From: Negaprion brevirostris | Lineage: Eukaryota | DNA: 64,000 nucleotides | Direction of reading: 5' to 3' | Assembly: GCA_030324005.1 (NCBI GenBank) | Contig: JARDVH010000149.1 | Location: 15,116,294-15,180,293 of the forward strand | Shown here: in pieces, positions 189 through 59,050 of the stretch | How the letters are laid out: every line of letters begins with the position of its first letter | How positions within the stretch are numbered: the first letter of the stretch is position 1 | The notes under the pieces: model-generated | What the model saw: only the letters and a program-made list of their open reading frames with translations | The model's database searches: none | Told to the model about the DNA's origin: nothing | Program-made: the position numbers and the translations under genes

Positions 189-260
189 TACGTCGGGAGT
201 CTGGATGTACAAAGGCCAAACAGCCGTGTGGAGATAGTGGCGGCTATGCGGAGGATACGG
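189..260 (+). CDS. NOS1AP: Internal coding exon (72 bp, phase 0-0) of NOS1AP/CAPON, N-terminal part of the PTB domain (equivalent to human exon 2)
   Basis: Polypyrimidine tract plus AG acceptor (ttttctgttttgttttcaag, ends 188) and GTGAGT donor at 261. Translation [24 protein letters not shown] matches vertebrate NOS1[26 protein letters not shown] at 23/24 as I recall it. A paralog cannot be excluded from one exon. Confidence 0.93.
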
Positions 261-3334: not shown

Positions 3335-3508
3335 GATATGGAGATGCTGGTGTTGGACTGGGGTAAAAACACAAAGAAGTCTCACAACACCAGCTTAAAG
3401 TCCAACAGGTTTGTTTGTAGCAAACGCCACAAGCTTTTGGAACAGGCCTATTTGCTCCAAATAAACCTGTTGGACTTCAAGCTGATGTTGTGAAACTTCT
3501 TTCTATTG
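3335..3508. mobile_element. Penelope-like terminal fragment (family P1) in fold-back arrangement
   Basis: Inverted arms ~3373-3424 and ~3451-3502; same family as 11795, 14670, 21471 and 42808. Confidence 0.75.
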
Positions 3509-11699: not shown

Positions 11700-11951
11700 C
11701 CATAAAACCACAGAATCCCTACAGTTNNNNNNNNNNNNNNNNNNNNNNNNNNNNNNNNNNNNNNNNNNNNNNNNNNNNNNNNNNNNNNNNNNNNCGGTTG
11801 GACTAAAACCTGGTGTTGTCAGACTTTTTACTGTGTTTACCCCAGTCCAACACCGGCATACCCACATCATAAACCCACGCAGACATGGGGAGAATGTGTA
11901 AACTCCACACAATCAGTCACCCAAGGCTGGAATCAAACCCGGGTCCCTGGC
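11700..11951 (-). mobile_element. HE1-type SINE containing a Penelope P1 end (11795-11868) and a gap
   Basis: Tail cacagaatccctacag; head side aaacccacgcagacatggggagaatgtg...aacccgggtccctggc. Confidence 0.75.
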
Positions 11952-14280: not shown

Positions 14281-15150
14281 AGAACATAAGTACATGTGTG
14301 GACAATTCACCTCCTCGAGCCTCCTCCACCATCCAATCCGATCATGGCTGATCTCTTCTCTACCTTTCTGCCCGTTTCCCTTGATCCTTTATCCTGCTCC
14401 TCATTAAAAACCTTTCTATCTCCTCAAATTTGTGTAGTGTTCCAGCGTCCACTGCATTCTGGGGTAGAAAATTCCACAGATTCCTGACCCTTGGAGTGAA
14501 GTAATTCCTTCTTATTTCTGTTTTAAATCTGCCGCCCCTTAGCCTAAAACTACAGCTCTTGTTCTAGAATGTCTGACAAGGGAAACGTCTGCCCTATGTC
14601 ATCCCTGCCAATACCCTTTAGCAGCTTGTATGCCTCAATCAGATCTCCCATTTTTCTAAACTACAAAGAGAAGCCTCACAACACCAAGTTAAAGTCCAAC
14701 AGATTTATTTGGAATCATGAGCTTTTGGAGTGCTGCTCCTTCATTAGGTGAGGAAGGTAGGTTCNNNNNNNNNNNNNNNNNNNNNNNNNNNNNNNNNNNN
14801 NNNNNNNNNNNNNNNNNNNNNNNNNNNNNNNNNNNNNNNNNNNNNNNNNNNNNNNNNNNNNNNNNNNNNNNNNNNNNNNNNNNNNNNNNNNNNNNNNNNN
14901 NNNNNNNTTGAATTGATTCTGATGCATTTATAACTTTCATCAAGTAAGGGGACCAAAACTGTGCACAGCACTCCAGATACGGTCTCACCAATGTCCTGTA
15001 CAGTTGCAATAGCACTTCCCTATTTATACCCTATTCCATTAGCAATGAATGCCAAAATTCCATTTGCCTTCCTTATTACCTGCTGCATTTGTATACTAGC
15101 TTTCTGCGATTCATGCACGAGGACATCCAGATCCTTTTGCACCAAAGCAG
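14281..15150 (-). mobile_element. CR1 LINE RT C-terminus and 3' UTR, interrupted by Penelope P1 (14670-14764) and a gap
   Basis: Minus-strand peptides DLDVLVHESQKASIQMQQVIRKANGILAFIA and LLQLYRTLVRPYLECCAQFWSPYL. Confidence 0.9.
14670..14764 (-). mobile_element. Penelope P1 terminus with decayed hammerhead motif
   Basis: Minus strand 14751-14715: tcac-CTAATGA-aggagcagcactcc-AAA-agct-c-atga. Confidence 0.75.
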
Positions 15151-21470: not shown

Positions 21471-21606
21471 CTCTCCATTCACCTGACAAAGAGGGAAACC
21501 TCGAAAGCTTGTGAGTTTACTATCAAATAAATCGGTTGGACTTAAACTTTGTGTTGTCAGACTTCTTACTGTGTTTACTCCAGTCCAACGCTGGCATCTC
21601 CACATC
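21471..21606 (+). mobile_element. Penelope P1 terminus
   Basis: ...aaataaatcggttggacttaaactttgtgttgtcagacttcttactgtgtttactccagtccaacgctggcatctccacatc, preceded by a gap. Confidence 0.8.
21479..21514 (+). ncRNA. Minimal type-I hammerhead ribozyme-like motif (G8>A variant, probably inactive)
   Basis: tcac-CTGACAA-a-GAGG-gaaa-CCTC-GAA-AGCT-T-gtga: stem I tcac/gtga, perfect stem II with GAAA loop, palindromic AGCT stem III. Confidence 0.65.
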
Positions 21607-21654
21607 AGAGATAGAACTGACAGAGAGTTCAAATCAACCTTCCAGAGAAACTAA

Positions 21655-21975
21655 GGACAGAACGGTGACACAGTGGTTAGCGCTTGCTGCCTCACAGCAC
21701 CAGAGACCCGAGTTCAATTCTGGCCTTGGGGTCACTGTGTGGAGTTTGCACATTCTCCCCGTGTCTGCATGGGTCCCCTCCGAGTGGTCTGGTTTCCTCC
21801 CACAGCGCAAAGATGATGTGCAAGTTAGGTTAATTGGCCATGCCAAATTAGTCCCAGTATCAAGGGGATTAGCAGGGTACATATCAGGGGTTGCAGGAGT
21901 AGGGCCTGGATGGGATTGTGGTCGGTGCAGATTCGATGGGCTGAATGGCCTCCTTCTGCACTGTGGGGATTCTAT
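21655..21975 (+). mobile_element. HE1-type V-SINE (type A, CR1 tail), full length
   Basis: acggtgacacagtggttagc A box, gagttcaattc B box, V-domain, tail ggcctccttctgcactgtggggattctat. Confidence 0.9.
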
Positions 21976-24452
21976 AACACAATGTGAATCAATTGGGGAA
22001 GTTGAGAACACTTCCGCACTGGGCCAACCTCAGAATACTACGTCGATTCTGGTTACGATGACCATGGATGACATCCAAACCAAACCAAAGTCACCAGAGG
22101 TTGCAGTAAACACTAAAAAGCAGTAGCTTGAGGTTAGCTGACAACCACAGAGAATGTCAGCCTCCGGAACTTCTGGCCTATTGACTGTTAATGTTACACT
22201 GTATTGGTGTCCAGAATTTTTGATTTAAAGGGGGAAGGAATAGTGTTGTGTATTCATGTTATTTCGAGTGTTTGCTCACTAGCAGCTTTACAGTGGAACA
22301 GGGGCACTTTAAGAGACCGATCACGGGACATCACTCATGATGTCATTGACCATTTGTCTGGGCAAATGAGAGGTCTATCTTAGCAGCCAGTAGTGTTAAC
22401 ATCTTTTCAATAAAGCTCTTTATTTGTTTAAACCTTCGAGGTCTGCAACCTATCTTTTGAACCCACCCTANNNNNNNNNNNNNNNNNNNNNNNNNNNNNN
22501 NNNNNNNNNNNNNNNNNNNNNNNNNNNNNNNNNNNNNNNNNNNNNNNNNNNNNNNNNNNNNNNNNNNNNNACTGTTTCTAAAAAGCGAGCACAAGGGGTC
22601 CTCAGACCTGTGCCCGTATTTGTCAGTGGTCCATTAATTGTGAACAGATGATGCTGCCAGATGAATGCAGCAGAGGCAATGTTTTCAGGGTTGACTGTTA
22701 GCATTTTCAGACAGACCTCTGCAGCGCACATAGCACTTTAATGAATCACACTATTATAGTGCAGGTTATTTATACTACTCAATAAGTCTTGTCTGTAAGG
22801 TTCCCATATAGACTGTAGCCACAATAACTTGGCATAACCTACTGTGGCTTATGGATTGGTTATTCATCCATTTTACTTAGGATTTTATGAAGGAAAAATA
22901 TAAATAGGAAAAGTATATATATGCGCAGGCCATATTGAGCTGATATCTTGTCACCAAAGAAGTATCATCCGTTTTGAATATGTTTGCTAAGCTTTGTCGA
23001 GTTTTTAATTAGCTTTGGTGTGGTATTTATAGTTTGATTCATGTTGCTTTCTCCATGATTTGTAGATGTAACTCGCAAAATACATACATGCTGCTTTTGA
23101 GAGTAAAAACAACAGAAAATAAGTCATCATAAAAGACACAGTGCATTGCATGAAACTGCATTTACTTTTTAAGAAATTAATCCGTTTTAGTAGCATTAAT
23201 CCCAGCTGATTTATGTGCAGTCAGTATTCAGCAAGTCCCTTTTAGAATGGAAACGGCTTTGCTTGCGGTTGCTTAAAACAAAGCTTTCCAGTTAAATATT
23301 TCTAGAAAATAAACTAAGTTCAACCAGAAGTGGAAGAATTTGGATTTTAAATTAATTACTGTTGCTGGCTGTGCATAATTCATTTCATTTTGTTTATGCT
23401 TCTTGTGTCTTCATCGACCTCCAACTGTTCCTATATAATGTACGCAGTGGAGGCTGCTGGTTTAATTTTCTATAACCTGGGACACTTTCCACATTCCCCC
23501 ACCACCATCAGGTTTCAGACGAAAGATTGTAGTTAAGTTTTGCTTGATATACTGCTTCTGACATTAATAAATCTTGTTGGTTCAGTNNNNNNNNNNNNNN
23601 NNNNNNNNNNNNNNNNNNNNNNNNNNNNNNNNNGAGGAGAGACAACTTGGAGGGGGATGGGGGAGACAACTTTCCAAAGTGGCTGTCACAGTGTGTGATC
23701 TCACCCAAGCTATCACTCAATGGGACACTTGATGCCAACCATACATAATTACCAATGTTCTTGGGCAGGAGTGTGTTCAGTACATACAGGCTTATTGATA
23801 AAAATGGGCTAAAAGTGTTTGAATCCTGTAAAGACGCTTTTGCATTAAAAAAAACTGAAAGTTCTCAATTTTCCATCGTCAGTTTTGTTCTTCGGTCCCC
23901 GATATTCGTAGGTTTAACAGAGCCTAATCTTCATGCTGAAGGAGGATGGTATGATTGGCCTGACACATACATTGTGGTGGAGATGAACAGTGAACATATA
24001 TTTGGCAGACCTGAAGACCTTTTCTGGGAATTGAAAAGAAAGTCCTTTGATCAGAGATGAAAATGTGTGTCAGCAAGGATTTGTTGCTGCTAATTAGCTG
24101 GCAAATGTGGTTATTCCATTGCAGCCCCTTTTGAAGGGGTTATCTCAAAAAGGCAACAGAATTTTAATCCAGAAAAATTGTTATTTTATCATCTGTTAAT
24201 GGGAAGAGTTTGTAGACTCCCTTTAGTTAATGTTATTAAACAAAGTAATGCAGTGTTCTAGTTTAACCAGATAAACACGTTGGATTGTTTCTTATTCCAT
24301 ATTAATTTTGGTCAATAGTGTCTTTTCCTCCATACTCCAGATACTTTAAGCCTCAGAATGTGAGTGTGTATGTGATAAACTCCAGAATATGATTACACGT
24401 CTTTTGTTCTAAGCCTCAAATGTGAGATTCGAAATTTCAGCTATGTTATCCT

Positions 24453-39489: not shown

Positions 39490-39818
39490 CATAGAATCAT
39501 AGAATCCTACACTACAGAAGGAGGCCATTCAGCCCATCAAGGCTGCACTGACCACAATCCCACCAGGCCCTATCCCCATAACCCCATGCATTTACCCTAA
39601 CTAATCCACCTGACACTAAGGGGCAATTTATCATGACCAATCCACTTAACTCACATATCTTTGGACTGTGGCAGGAAACTGGAGCATCCAGAAGAAACTC
39701 GCGCAGACATGGGGAGGATGTGCAGACTCCATACAGGCAGTGATCCAAGGCTGGAATCAAACCCAGGTCTCTGGCACTGTAAGGCAGCAGTGCTAACCAT
39801 TGTGCCACTGTGCCTCCC
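39490..39818 (-). mobile_element. HE1-type V-SINE, full length
   Basis: catagaatcatagaatcc tail ... gcagcagtgctaaccattgtgccactgtgcc head; gtcat on both flanks. Confidence 0.9.
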
Positions 39819-41539: not shown

Positions 41540-43170
41540 GTTTTGGGCTGACACTATCTGTGACTGTTCGTACACTGATACACCTTTGGCAAATACACAC
41601 CTCCAGGCTGAGCATTCCTGGGCAAGGGTCTTCCATGTTGCAGTGTCAATTTTACAGTCCTTGAGGGAGGCTTTTCAAGATTTCTTCTAGCTGTCAGGGC
41701 AGTGTGCTCCATTCTGCAGGTCAATGTAGAAGATTCACTCAGAGAGCCAGTTGTGAGGCATTCTCGTGGCATGCTGGAGCAGTTTTTGACATAAGGTTGT
41801 AAAGATGCTGACCATGCCAGTTCTCCTGAGGACCTCTGTACCTGGGACTTTGTCTTGCCACTTGATATTGACGAGCCTGCATACGCAGCAAAGGTGGAAG
41901 CGATTGACTTTCTTTGCATGTTGCTGATAGACAGTCCAGGTCTCACTCGCATAGAGTGCAGAGGACAACTGCTCTGAAGACTTGAGCTTGGTTTTCAGGT
42001 CCACCTCTCTTTGTTCCCAAACTGAATCGCAAAGTCTTCCAAAGGACACGCTGATCCTGGTCCCACCATCAACATGAGCACTGCTTAGGTCGGTGTACTT
42101 GTCCACAGGGGTCAGCTTCTGGTTGTTTATTCTTACTGTTGGCTCTTAATAGAGCTTTCCTGGAGCAGGATGGAACATGACTTCAATCTTTGTGCTGATG
42201 GTGAGACCAAATTTGTAACAGGTTCATAATGTGCTGCACATCCACCTCACTCCCAATGTTTATCTTCAGCAAAAAGAAAGTCACACTGTGTATCAGCAAG
42301 GACCTTGGTCTTGGCCTGGAGGTGTCGCAGGTTGAACAGCTTGCTGTCTATTTGGTAGTTGGTGACTATGCCTGTGTCATCACCCTAGAAGAGGTCAGTC
42401 AATATGGTTGAGAACATGGTACTAAAGAGGGCCAGCACCAGTTTACAGTCCTGTTTCGCTGCATTGGTAACAGGAAAGGGGCTGAAGTCTCATTGCCATC
42501 AGGGATGTGAACCTACATACCATCATGGAACTCTCAAACCATCTGAATGAATTTGTCAAGGCACCCAAGCTTGCTGATAATCTTCCAAAGCCCTTTACGG
42601 CTGACACCATCAAAGGCTTTGGATAGGTCAATAAATGTGTTTCGGTCAGCATTTAGTTCCTGGCACTTCTCCTGCAGCTGGCCAGCAAAAAGAACCATGT
42701 TGATGATTCCCAACCTTTTCTAAAACCACACAGACTCTCCAGTAGTGGACCTTGCTCAAGATGTAATAAGAGACACTTTAGAAGAATTCTGACAAGGATT
42801 TTTCCAGTAAGAAGTCTCACAACACCAGGTTAAAGTTCAACAGATTTATTTGGTGGCAAACACGTTTGCTACCAAATAAACCTGTTGGAGTTTAACCTGG
42901 CGTTGTAAGACTTCTTACTGTGTTTACCCCAGTCCAATGCTGGCATCTCCACATCAAGGATTTTTCCAGCAATGGACAGGAGAAATATCCTCTGTGATTG
43001 TCACAAGCTGGTGGTTGCCTTCGCATTTGTAGATGTGAACAGTGAAGCTGTCTTTGAAGTCTTGTAGAAGGACCTCTTTGTCCCACATGGATTGGAAGAG
43101 CTGGGCTGAGCTTTCAGTAGCTGAGATCCAACATATTTATCAATCTCCACTGGAATCTGATCAGCTCCAT
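41540..43170 (-). mobile_element. Decayed RTE-clade (BovB-like) LINE, RT and C-terminal region
   Basis: Peptides SFGRLCDSVWEQREVDLKTKLK...LYASETWTVYQQHAKKVNRFHLCC...IKWQDKVP and CDNHRG; multiple frameshifts. Confidence 0.85.
42808..42955. mobile_element. 148-bp fold-back Penelope P1 mini-insertion
   Basis: 14-bp TSD AAGGATTTTTCCAG at 42794-42807 and 42956-42969; inverted arms 42805-42861 and 42864-42920. Confidence 0.85.
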
Positions 43171-43196: not shown

Positions 43197-43522
43197 GAGC
43201 GGCACGGTGCCACAGTGGTTAGCACTGCTGCCTCACAGAGCCAGAGACCAGGTTCAATTCCAGACTCGGGTCACTGTCTATGTGGAGTTTGCACGTTCTC
43301 CCCATGTCTGTATGGGTTACCTTCAGGTGTTCTGGTTTCCTCCCACACTCCAAAGATGTTCTGGTTAGGTTGATTGGCCATACTGAATTAACCCTAGTGT
43401 CAAGGGGATTAACAGGGTAAATATATTGGGTTTCGGGAATAGGCTTTGGATGGGAATGTGGTCAGTACAAACCTGATGGGCTGAAAGGCCTCCATCTGTA
43501 CTGTAGGGATTCTATGATTCTA
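43197..43522 (+). mobile_element. HE1-type V-SINE
   Basis: gcggcacggtgccacagtggttagcactgctgcctcacag ... ctgtagggattctatgattcta. Confidence 0.9.
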
Positions 43523-43885
43523 CAGTTTTCTCTGTTTCCCTGCAGTGTGGGTGGAGTGCCTAGAGCAGAGTTGATGTCGACCTATTTATAACATTATCAT
43601 TGATGTGAAATGGTCTGTTTGAGGAAGTTATTGAAATGCTCAACCCTCCAACTATGTCCCCCGACAACCCCAATAGGCCTACACGCTCTCTCCAGTTGTT
43701 GTATTCCTTGCCTGACAAGTTTCTCTTCTGTCAATCAGATAGGTTGCACACAGAAAACCAAAGGCAAACATTTAAAGAGAATTTGCTGTTAAGAACCCCA
43801 CGTTCCGGGATTTTCCAACCACAGAAAGTTCCCATCCTGCTCAGAACACATTTCCAAACTAAAATGCAGACATTAAGTTTTGTTC

Positions 43886-44178
43886 CATAGAATCCCTACA
43901 GTACAGAAGGAAGCCATTTGGCTCATCGAGTCTGTACCCACACAGGCCCTATTCACGTAAACCCACACATTTACCCAGCTAATCCCCCTGATACTAGGGC
44001 CAATTAAGCATGGCCAATCAACCTAACCCACACATCTTTGGACTGTGGGCGGAAACCGGAGCACCTGGACGAAACCCACGCAGTCACAGGGAGAATATGC
44101 AAACTCCACACAGTCACCCGAGATCGGAATTGATCCTGAGTTCTTGGCACTGTGAGGCAGCAGTGCTAACCACGCTGC
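43886..44178 (-). mobile_element. HE1-type V-SINE
   Basis: catagaatccctacagtacagaagg ... gaggcagcagtgctaaccac. Confidence 0.9.
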
Positions 44179-44538
44179 CAGGGCCCATGTCGTTGGTTTC
44201 CAATCAGCAATCAAAACAAGGCTAACAGAACACAAAGGGTGTCTAAGCATTGCCAAGCATGTTCACCTTTTTCTTCACCCAAAAGAACATCAAAAGGTCT
44301 CTAATACTGAATTTCCCTTTGACAGAATTACAAACCATGTTTGGCATAAAGATTAGCTCCATTGCAATCTGGGCCACAGTCTTGCCAAAGATCACAGCCA
44401 AGATTGGACACAGCTTCAGCTTGCATTAAGGATGATTAATGAATATTTGGTACCATCTGAAGCTACAGCACCGAAGAGAGATGACAGATTAGCCCTATTG
44501 CCAAAAACATTTGTGTGGCCCACAATACATTTATACTA

Positions 44539-44766
44539 CTTTTTTTTATCCATTCACAGGACATGGACGTTTCTGGCTAGCCGGCATTTATTGCCTATCC
44601 CTAGTTGCCTGAGGGTAATTGAGAGTCAACCACATTACTGTGGCTCTGGAGTAGCATTTGGGCCAGTCAGGGTAAGCACAGTAGATTTCTTTCCCTAAAG
44701 GACATTAGTGAACTAGGTATTCTTTTCCAAAAATCAACACTGGTTTTCATGATCATCAGGAGATCC
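44539..44766 (-). mobile_element. SINE type C 3' half
   Basis: ggctagccggcatttattgcctatccctagttgcc...ccctaaaggacattagtgaac. Confidence 0.8.
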
Positions 44767-44771
44767 TTCAG

Positions 44772-45032
44772 AGAAATCATAGAAACCTTACAGTGCAGAA
44801 AGAGGCCATTCGGCCCATTGAGTCTGCACCGACCACATTTCCACCCAGGCCCTACCCCCATATCCCACATTTACTTGCTAATCCCTCTAACCCACACATC
44901 TCAAGACACTAAGGAACATTTTTTAGCATGGCCAATCAACCTAACCCGCATATTTTTGGACTACGGGAGGAAACTGGGGGACTTGGAGGAAACCCTCGCA
45001 GACACAAGGAGAATGTGCAAACTCCACACAGA
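44772..45032 (-). mobile_element. HE1-type V-SINE lacking head
   Basis: gaaatcatagaaaccttacagtgcagaaagaggccattcggccc ... gtgcaaactccacacagaca. Confidence 0.85.
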
Positions 45033-45495
45033 CAGGAACTTTGTTAGAGATATGAATATATCTGTTGATAGAGGTACAGTGATAGAGGGTGCAGTGTCAT
45101 GTCTGAAGTACACTTGCATGGACTTTAGAAAGAGTGTGGGCTAATTCAGATAATTTACTTACATTCCTTGCTTAATCATTGAACTACAGAATTCTTACAT
45201 TGCAGGAGCAGGCCATTTGACCCATTGTGTCTGTGCTGGCTCACCAAATGACCAATTCCCATAGTAACCATGCACATTCTTCCTTTTCAGATAATCTAAT
45301 TCCATTTGTTGAACCTGTTCCCACCATTCTCTCATGTAGTGCATTCCAGACCATAATCACTGCTGAGAAAGATTTTCTTAACTTGCGTTCATATCTTTTT
45401 GTATTACTTTAAAATTTGTGCTCTCTTGTTCTCAATCTGTCCCTCTCTGTTGACTCTTGTCTGTCTATCAATTTCTTTGTCTCTATCTCTCTCTG

Positions 45496-45802
45496 GGTGG
45501 TACAGTGGTTCCCACTGCTGCCTCACAGCACCAGGGAGCCGGGTTCAATTTCCCACTTGGGTCACTGTCTCTGTGGAGTCTGCGTGTTCTCCCTGTGTCT
45601 GTGTGGGTTTCCTCCAGGTACTCCAGTTTCCTCCCACAATCCAAAAATGTGCGGATTAGGTGGATTAGCCATGCTAAATTGTCCCTTAGTTGCTCAAGAG
45701 AACTAGCTAGGATAAATGCAAGGGATTATGGGGAAAGGGCCTGGGTCAGTGCAAACTCGATGGGCCGAGTGGACTGCTTCTGCACTGTAGGATTCTATGA
45801 TT
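45496..45802 (+). mobile_element. HE1-type V-SINE within CT-rich low-complexity sequence
   Basis: ggtggtacagtggttcccactgctgcctcacagc ... tgcactgtaggattctatgatt. Confidence 0.9.
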
Positions 45803-46137
45803 CTCTTGCTACCGCTCTCTCACCATCTCACTCTATGTCTGCCTGACTGTCACTATCTCTTTGTTTCTATTTCTCTACCTGTTTATTTCTTGTCTCTCTC
45901 TCTCTCTATCTCCCTGTCTATCTATCCATCTAACTGTCTCTCTATCTCTTTATCTCTCCTATGTCTTTCTGTGTGATTGTCTGTCCGTCCATGTATTCCA
46001 TCCTAACTGTGGATGTATACTACACCACATGGTCTGTAGTGGTGTAAGAAGGTGACTTAGCACCACCTTCACGGGGACAATTAGGGACGGGCAATAAATG
46101 CTGGTCTAGCCGGTAACACCCACACCCCATGAACACC

Positions 46138-46300
46138 TAACTCGCACACCTTTGGACTGAGAGAGGAAACCGGAGCATCCAGAGGAAACCCACGCAGACA
46201 CGGGGAGAGCGCGCAAGCTCCGCACAGACAGTGGCCCAAGCCGGGAATCGAACCCAGGTCCCTGGTGCTATGAGGCAGCAGTGCTAACCATTATGCCACC
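46138..46300 (-). mobile_element. V-SINE head half, abutting a family D LINE tail (46005-46135, +)
   Basis: ggaaacccacgcagacacggggagag...gggaatcgaacccaggtccctggtgctatgaggcagcagtgctaacca. Confidence 0.85.
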
Positions 46301-58495: not shown

Positions 58496-58849
58496 TTCCA
58501 CATTCGTTGAAGACCATTTGCTATTCAGTCCTTTTTATTCGTTGTTAACTGTTATTCAGAGGATGAGATGGCCTTGTACTTGTGCTATACACCTGATCTA
58601 ACCAATTTATCATGTGTGTTAAAGGATGATGCAGGAGATTTACTTCACACCGCTTCTCTGCAAATGATTTTGCTTCATGCGGTTTAGTCTCCATTGATTC
58701 CTGAAAATGAACAGCCTGAACTATCGACTGCTCGGTGCTGTTTATCAGTCTGTTTGAAGCTTGGTGTATTAATATGCCTGCATCCTGCAGCACACCAGAT
58801 CACTCACACATCAAACCTAGTACGTTGTTACAGTTATGAGGCTTATAAG

Positions 58850-59050
58850 ATCCGGCCAACATTGTCTACCTAATACGCTGCAGAAAAAGATGTCCAGAAG
58901 CATAGTACGTTGGGCAGACCATGCAGACACTATAACAATGGATGAATGAACATTGTTCGACAATCACAGGCAAGACTGTTCCCTTCCTGTTGGCAAACAC
59001 TTCCGCGGTCACAGGCATTTGGTCTCTGATCTTTGGGTAAGCGTTTTCCA
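58850..59050 (+). pseudogene. Penelope-like element GIY-YIG endonuclease remnant
   Basis: From 58855: ANIVYLIRCRKRCPEA*YVGQTMQTL*QWMNEH, then a frameshift to QDCSLPVGKHFRGHRH; VY...YVG...H pattern of the PLE GIY-YIG domain. Confidence 0.85.

Follow-up and report, generated by a model that had tools for sequence, protein, structure and literature searches.

According to the literature, the terminal repeats of Penelope-like elements (PLEs) carry minimal hammerhead ribozymes (Cervera and De la Peña 2014, PMC4209133), and the published hosts of such motifs are fish, lamprey, coelacanth, frog and reptiles. The family described here, from the shark Negaprion brevirostris, is a further case of these already described ribozymes: it shares with them the core consensus, the extra base after position 9, the G10.1–C11.1 pair, the palindromic 15.2–16.2 segment, the short stem I, the location in a terminal repeat and the occurrence of many sequence families per genome (PMC4209133). 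Among the motifs in Fig. S3 of that paper, the one from turtle shares its palindrome and U17 with the shark copy and the one from lamprey its stem I, while no shark entry is present in its supplement file 2. Stem II length, with an entry of 4–5 bp, stands among the differences from the motifs of PMC4209133, as does the G8>A change carried by the copy analyzed here. The literature search returned no paper on shark PLE hammerheads; subscription papers, Repbase and the supplements of a 2026 preprint may list the family.

The DNA analyzed (the window, 64,000 nucleotides in full) contains one copy of this motif in sense orientation in a host intron. With a probability of roughly 0.88, this copy is read as a dispersed tail-end copy of a likely Neptune-type PLE, the hammerhead of which was likely once under selection and is likely inactive through G8>A.

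The hammerhead motif and its host intron

A minimal type-I hammerhead at 21479–21514 had been claimed in the initial annotation, and all of its parts were found in place. The features of the motif and of its host are as follows:

189..260, plus strand, host exon weakly assigned to a PTB domain (translation and exon reading); the motif lies in the following intron of ~90 kb
21479..21514, plus strand, minimal type-I hammerhead motif carrying G8>A (21488), predicted to be cut after U17 at 21510 (layout, folding, descriptor scan)
21479–21482 paired with 21511–21514, plus strand, stem I (sequence layout)
21483–21489, plus strand, core positions 3–9, with A for G at position 8 (21488)
21490, plus strand, single extra A after position 9 (sequence layout)
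21491..21502, plus strand, stem II and loop II, of the GAGG/CCUC type of the youngest subfamily (family pattern search, tree)
21491–21494 and 21499–21502, plus strand, arms of stem II enclosing a 4-nt loop (sequence layout)
21503..21510, plus strand, G12–A14, 4-nt palindromic stem III and U17 (layout as in Fig. S3 of PMC4209133)
21503–21505, plus strand, G12–A14
21506–21509, plus strand, 4-nt palindrome

The minimal type-I descriptor, with G8A allowed, matched the window solely at 21479–21514, and gave no match in 200 random (Markov-1) sequences that equal the window in length and dinucleotide make-up. RNA folding recovered stems I and II (−9.7 kcal/mol; z, −2.13), with 7 of 200 shuffles equally good, and supported no stable stem-loop 3′ of the ribozyme (z about 0). 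The 4-nt palindromic stem III is predicted to lead to pairing between two units. G8>A was confirmed as the sole core defect, the other core positions being intact; the wording "near-intact", on the other hand, understates a change that breaks the C3–G8 pair. The Rfam hammerhead models, named in the same annotation as a check, gave nothing in the window, where no hammerhead family was found among 15 matches at E ≤ 10. Weak microRNA-like matches at 42810–42915 (mir-3015 and HIV_POL-1_SL) were rejected because a fold-back insertion of two inverted termini of the same repeat family lies there.

Measured from the window start, the next host exons lie at ~90.5, 98.1 and 99.6 kb and share the strand of the exon at 189–260; because these exons flank it, the motif is intronic and in sense orientation. 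The best E-value for PTB identity of the exon at 189–260 was 0.022 in one search, and PID clusters appeared at 0.87 in another. The host gene is presumably NOS1AP, judging by peptide motifs. Of the earlier statement that the motif is sense to the NOS1AP pre-mRNA, the intronic position and the orientation thus stand, while the name is presumptive and the PTB domain weakly supported.

The carrier element and the shape of its copies

An upstream walk from the terminus led through a UTR of ~210 nt into a GIY-YIG-type frame (loci L043 and L032). The layout of the element is a terminal repeat, an ORF (RT, zinc-finger linker, GIY-YIG) and another terminal repeat. From the stop codon to the hammerhead there are ~210 nt, and from the hammerhead to the next start codon 97 nt. 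In loci L138, L130, L147 and L127 the ATG of the ORF follows directly on the terminus, a partial tandem as in PLEs, and in four public runs contig ends at 21607 extend in the same way into the start codon; contigs of four public runs presumed to be RNA, from other organisms and possibly of DNA, span all 30 bins of L130, which is not taken to show transcription or cleavage. The relative protein P0005, which covers amino acids 1–641 in locus L110, matches RVT_1 (E-value, 5e-9). GIY-YIG-type motifs were read directly in L043, although the Pfam scan of its endonuclease alone matched no family, and the protein shows a DKG motif; the CX4CxxC linker and CCHH residues were read in L043 and P0005. The closest named relatives of the protein come from Mustelus, Scyliorhinus, Heptranchias and Chiloscyllium, the longer of them carrying RT. 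The endonuclease search gave 28,425 candidates; among the loci examined, no unbroken full-length element was found and all coding copies are broken. Pieces of the endonuclease also occur inside annotated shark isoforms (NOXP20-like, septin 5a, XRCC5, PPP1R12A-like, IQCK and USP8), by exonisation or annotation error.

The linker and CCHH definitions of Craig et al. exclude Penelope and Poseidon for this protein (PMC8557442), and vertebrate PLEs are, according to the preprint of Li et al., Neptune and Poseidon only (bioRxiv 10.64898/2026.07.22.740005); on both grounds, the carrier is likely a Neptune-type PLE. Like elements of the Neptune clade (Craig et al. 2021, PMC8557442), it has a single ORF with DKG, RT, a CX2-5CxxC linker and, at its C terminus, a GIY-YIG domain with CCHH, as well as partial tandems, an inverted 5′-truncated partner and a tail of 30–40 nt. 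As had been proposed, the family is therefore a ribozyme-bearing PLE family, its terminus being tied to an ORF with RT and GIY-YIG in the longer copies.

The following segments of the window belong to the family:

21471..21607, plus strand, 3′ pseudo-LTR terminus of a likely Neptune-type PLE, the 3′ end being the A of the start codon in tandem copies
21474..21479, plus strand, initiator-like hexamer with a putative transcription start near 21477 (from the ends of relatives and the TATA-like motif)
21572..21607, plus strand, optional tail, approximately bounded, spanning the interval from one preferred 3′ end of the family to the other (end mapping)
14669..14765, minus strand, sister terminus of an older subfamily with a hammerhead at 14715–14751 (repeat comparison, family covariance model)
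42805..42956, no strand assigned, fold-back insertion of two inverted termini, both truncated 3′ of the hammerhead (repeat comparison)
3335..3504, no strand assigned, fold-back insertion with a partial hammerhead (repeat comparison)
11795..11869, plus strand, terminus in which the hammerhead part reads N (repeat comparison)

The sister copy at 14715–14751 (minus strand) does have the different stem II (GGAG/CUCC) noted for it earlier; three defects had gone unlisted, namely G5>A, G12>A and, on the 3′ side of stem I, a G>A change, and only stem II forms in RNA folding. The covariance model built from the family gave 11 matches at E ≤ 0.1 in the window and the 200 kb downstream. An older-subfamily copy with the whole core and the UTR, and with one stem I pair changed, is located ~208 kb from the window start (L207:4217-4291, plus strand), and an endonuclease-region fragment of the same element at 58849–59048 (plus strand) runs into an N stretch. 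Dispersed repeats of other kinds, SINE-like by look, occupy 21660–21980, 39500–39810 and 43250–46300, and one SINE-like repeat begins about 55 nt after the insertion at 21471–21607.

Compared with the genome, the 136-nt terminus gave 1,873 first-look candidates, the best of them 93–96% identical. A pattern with stem I and core fixed and stem II free, run genome-wide with the reversed pattern as a control, returned 17,707 core-intact matches versus 0, so that the relatives with an intact core expected earlier do exist; for comparison, a different search gave ~4,000 matches in coelacanth and ~9,000 in Xenopus (PMC4209133). The block 3′ of the ribozyme has 17,952 genome matches, and, as 17 of 90 core-pattern rows recur among these in a shared contig stretch (hand count), the family total is estimated, roughly, to be near 10^5 termini.

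Family copies share the 3′ end, have 5′-truncated bodies and frequently an inverted partial copy upstream, an inverted terminus being found there in 28 of 90 core-pattern copies and 12 of 30 young copies. The 3′ ends lie 50–66 nt after the cut site in 58 of 107 copies and 89–104 nt after it in 36 of 107; these two preferred ends are ~37 nt apart, and the longer one coincides with the start codon. The 5′ ends were mapped in the first 82 matches to the post-ribozyme block, chosen regardless of the ribozyme, the end-mapping samples coming from one contig. Thirteen copies run into Ns, five of them after passing the ribozyme. Among the 69 readable ends, 9 lie 3′ of the cut, 1 is at the cut and 22 are internal to the motif; another 25 precede stem I by no more than 15 nt, and 12 are farther upstream. 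A stretch of 11 nt around the point where stem I starts holds 27 of the ends. With one end of 69 at the cut, copy 5′ ends as marks of the cut site were ruled out. Of 62 long copies, 51 have a TATA-like motif that starts 28–38 nt upstream of stem I (in 46 of them at 32–33) and ~30 nt ahead of an initiator-like A. In the window copy this motif would fall inside the N run directly upstream of 21471, which hides the 5′ end of this copy; 16 of 30 young copies are likewise bordered by Ns immediately upstream. Inverted partners probably interrupt the assembly, so that the counts of long and fold-back copies are too low.

Covariation of stem II and decay at CpG sites

In 63 rows chosen regardless of the motif (one row duplicated), CUGANGA and GAAA are the commonest core state. 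Both this core and the pairing of stem II, the loss of which from the family consensus had been named as grounds for dismissing the ribozyme, are thus present in the family alignment. The non-CpG core positions are unchanged in 60–63 of 63 rows, and the variable positions are 7, stem and loop II, and 17. The flanks outside the ribozyme are conserved to about the same degree, which makes the conservation of the core weak evidence when taken by itself.

The first covariation set comprised 90 of the first 100 core-pattern copies and was compared with 5,000 shuffles. Watson–Crick counts at pairs 10.2, 10.3 and 10.4 exceeded all of the shuffles; pair 10.1 fell short, owing to C>T decay that yields G–U (G–C in 49 and G–U in 32 of 90 copies). 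The extra base after position 9 is A in 85 and G in 5 of the 90, and position 17 is T in 43, A in 25, C in 18 and G in 4. The second set consisted of 62 copies picked by endonuclease or UTR, together with the window copy. Pairing of stem II holds here in 94.8% of cells, the value falling in slid controls, and 47 stem II cells are changed on both sides versus 18.0 in shuffles, none of 500 being as high; the number of pairs with double changes shows no excess over shuffles (183/500). Stems I and III hardly covary in this set; the palindromic 15.1–16.1 segment has A–U in 59 and G–C in 57 of 62 copies. The first pair of stem I is U–G or C–G in about half of the copies.

As the copies are kin, and kinship inflates cell counts, a tree was built from the flanks with stem II excluded (61 rows, one dropped for Ns; low support on several branches). 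The tree has the form of a ladder, along which stem II went through at least four distinct compensatory steps, with G–U intermediates at pair 10.3: A–U to G–C at 10.3, G–C to A–U at 10.4, both back, and then G–C to A–U at 10.2. The stem II type of the window copy marks the youngest group. The covariation suspected earlier from two copies is borne out by compensatory changes above shuffles and by these steps, and the hammerhead of the family has likely been selected in the active lineage. On the opposite strand of 21477–21485 and of its relatives, the 5′ arm of stem I and the first core bases resemble, in older subfamilies, the consensus of a 5′ splice site, which could matter for antisense intronic copies.

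A core-free pattern with the GAGG/CCUC stem II collected 487 copies, of which the first 100 were counted by hand. Positions 7–8 read CG in 49, TG in 12, CA in 11, TA in 1, AG in 26 and GG in 1, and positions 11.1–12 read CG in 67, TG in 18 and CA in 15. All core positions are intact in 73 of these 100 young copies, and U17, found in 65, is the family state. In the 30 young copies fetched, positions 7–8 are CG in 14, AG in 7, TG in 6, CA in 2 and TA in 1. The A7 sub-lineage (26 of the first 100, mostly with A17) has lost the CpG at 7–8 and is free of G8>A decay. Among these 100 copies, G8>A is found only in the CpG lineage and is about as frequent as the harmless C7>U. Since damaging and harmless CpG changes are equal in frequency and G8>A is absent from the A7 lineage, decay after insertion appears neutral, and the symmetric TG and CA counts agree with the earlier view of G8>A as CpG decay. 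Set against the most frequent letters among 27 near relatives, the window copy deviates at 5 columns.

In the active hammerhead fold, C3 and G8 pair, and they covary as U3–A8 (PMC3088659). The window copy has C3 with A8, neither C3–G8 nor the compensated U3–A8. In the Poseidon element of anole, G8C abolishes cleavage (PMC11167929). The literature search found no paper with a measured rate for uncompensated G8A. An uncompensated G8A is expected to cost hammerhead activity. Because its C3–G8 pair is broken and G8C abolishes cleavage in anole, the window copy is, by analogy, likely a catalytically inactive, decayed member of the PLE minimal hammerheads, as foreseen in the initial annotation, where it was called probably dead.

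Proposed transcript head, alternatives and significance

The terminal repeat may act as a TATA–initiator promoter, the RNA of which would begin at the ribozyme, since 5′ ends cluster at stem I ~30 nt after the TATA-like motif. Reverse transcription would be started by the element's protein internally, near the start codon, and would often run to the RNA 5′ end, giving copies of ~100–140 nt, often with an inverted partner. Short copies would then be cDNAs of the leader of uncleaved RNA, an arrangement of ends that suggests an uncleaved, ribozyme-headed RNA as the insertion template. Cutting would not be needed for insertion, after which copies would decay neutrally at CpG sites. Dimer cleavage of PLE hammerheads was reportedly described by Lünse et al. 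in 2017. The shark ribozyme may, by analogy, cut only as a dimer via the palindrome or with the element's protein, probably in the processing of tandem read-through RNA, a step borrowed from PMC4209133 and PMC11167929; 8 of 9 Xenopus dimer elements failed to cleave in vitro (bioRxiv 10.64898/2026.07.22.740005). A more specific form of the proposal is tentative, and its odds are put somewhat below even: the hammerhead would form the first ~35 nt of the shark Neptune transcript, a TATA box 30 nt upstream setting the RNA start at stem I; reverse transcription starting at or ~37 nt before the start codon would copy uncleaved RNA to the cap; and cleavage, by taking off the capped leader or dividing tandem RNA, would be a protein-gated switch between messenger and template.

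Parts of this arrangement have counterparts in other PLEs. In Poseidon of Anolis carolinensis (Frangieh et al. 2024, PMC11167929), two internal starts of reverse transcription downstream of the hammerhead likewise give a tail, the end is AC-rich, and copies are not bounded by the cut site. The anole element belongs to a different clade, and its ORF starts inside the hammerhead with reverse transcription starting 111–118 nt into the ORF, whereas in the shark element 97 nt separate the cut site from the start codon, with which the long 3′ end coincides. The Penelope pLTR of Adineta vaga resembles the shark terminus in its putative TATA box, initiator-like sequence, tail and inverted pLTR (PMC3846280). 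Penelope of Drosophila virilis differs in its TATA-less internal promoter with a 75-bp intron (PMC2377424), an intron at the cut site being without support in the shark family. The cut site was considered as the splice donor of a 5′ UTR intron of ~73 nt, the acceptor-like end of which is conserved (71 of 77 end in AG); this gained no support, as a strong donor is confined to the young subfamily, and junctions of the spliced type were absent from the fetched loci and, with 0 matches, genome-wide.

That the hammerhead layout is a relic with another job, such as a promoter or initiator or an RNA structure for the protein, its stem II covariation arising from hairpin-templated DNA repair, is considered unlikely. 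Such a relic would fit the overlap of the motif with the putative transcription start, flanks as conserved as the core, and a cut site that holds a single readable 5′ end and neither 3′-end peak; in the experiments described in PMC11167929, insertion of the anole Poseidon element in vitro could do without the ribozyme, and the cut site was not the end of any RNA reads. It does not fit the confinement of variation to hammerhead-tolerant positions with a nearly constant non-CpG core, the rarity of G at position 17, the G–U intermediates at pair 10.3, or the cleavage of related schistosome and anole motifs (PMC4209133, PMC11167929). A non-autonomous retrozyme, with short tandem hammerhead units spreading via circular RNA, is highly improbable. 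Short dispersed units do dominate the family, and non-LTR retrozymes, which also carry a type-I hammerhead, are described in one chondrichthyan genome with a mean consensus of 363 bp (Li, Clavereau and Pollet 2026, preprint); however, the sequence upstream grades into the UTR and endonuclease of the element, the ends miss the cut site, and the 272 fetched loci scanned contain no retrozyme-type head-to-tail array. Among the 193 loci with the motif, 16 hold two, 12 pairs in opposite and 4 in the same orientation at a spacing of 0.5–1.5 kb. The label "retrozyme-like" therefore had to be dropped for what is the terminus of a coding element.

Recruitment of the window copy by the host in the presumed NOS1AP intron, as a domesticated ribozyme or as a substrate cut in trans by intact family RNA, is scarcely credible. 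The copy is intronic and in sense orientation, conserved intronic hammerheads are known in amniotes (PMC6155905), and, in the dimer model, in which each core would cut the other unit, a G8A unit might still be cut by an intact partner. Trans pairing would depend, however, on two 4-bp helices, and, wherever the intron is readable, the descriptor and the family covariance model turned up no intact partner on the same strand. The 3′ flank of the insertion is covered in the public contig set X18, a contig of which overlaps the element by 26 letters (bridge threshold, 31), and next to uncovered in X19 and X20, the runs of two other organisms, although contigs cannot prove absence. The RECK-type hammerheads of amniotes, also type-I and intronic, differ from the window copy, in which the core is not intact and neither recognizable tertiary loops nor a sign of orthologous conservation were seen (PMC6155905). 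No evidence supporting domestication at this intron was found; as a member of the youngest subfamily, only 5 columns off its nearest copies, with a core broken by symmetric CpG decay, the copy is likely not domesticated and probably does nothing to the host pre-mRNA. The reading as a decayed tail-end copy of a likely Neptune-type PLE is thus retained.

The single locus is of little weight, being one decayed copy among roughly a hundred thousand. The family adds sharks, with many copies, to the range of PLE minimal hammerheads and is relevant to the role of these ribozymes in the element. The ends of its copies lend support from the genome to the finding, made in vitro, of an uncleaved RNA template, and its natural intact and CpG-decayed copies are matched positive and negative controls for a cleavage assay. 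If the hammerhead does form the head of the transcript, the ~10^5 insertions would be an in vivo map of the starts and stops of reverse transcription, and the compensatory ladder of stem II would be a test series for the purpose of the PLE ribozyme.
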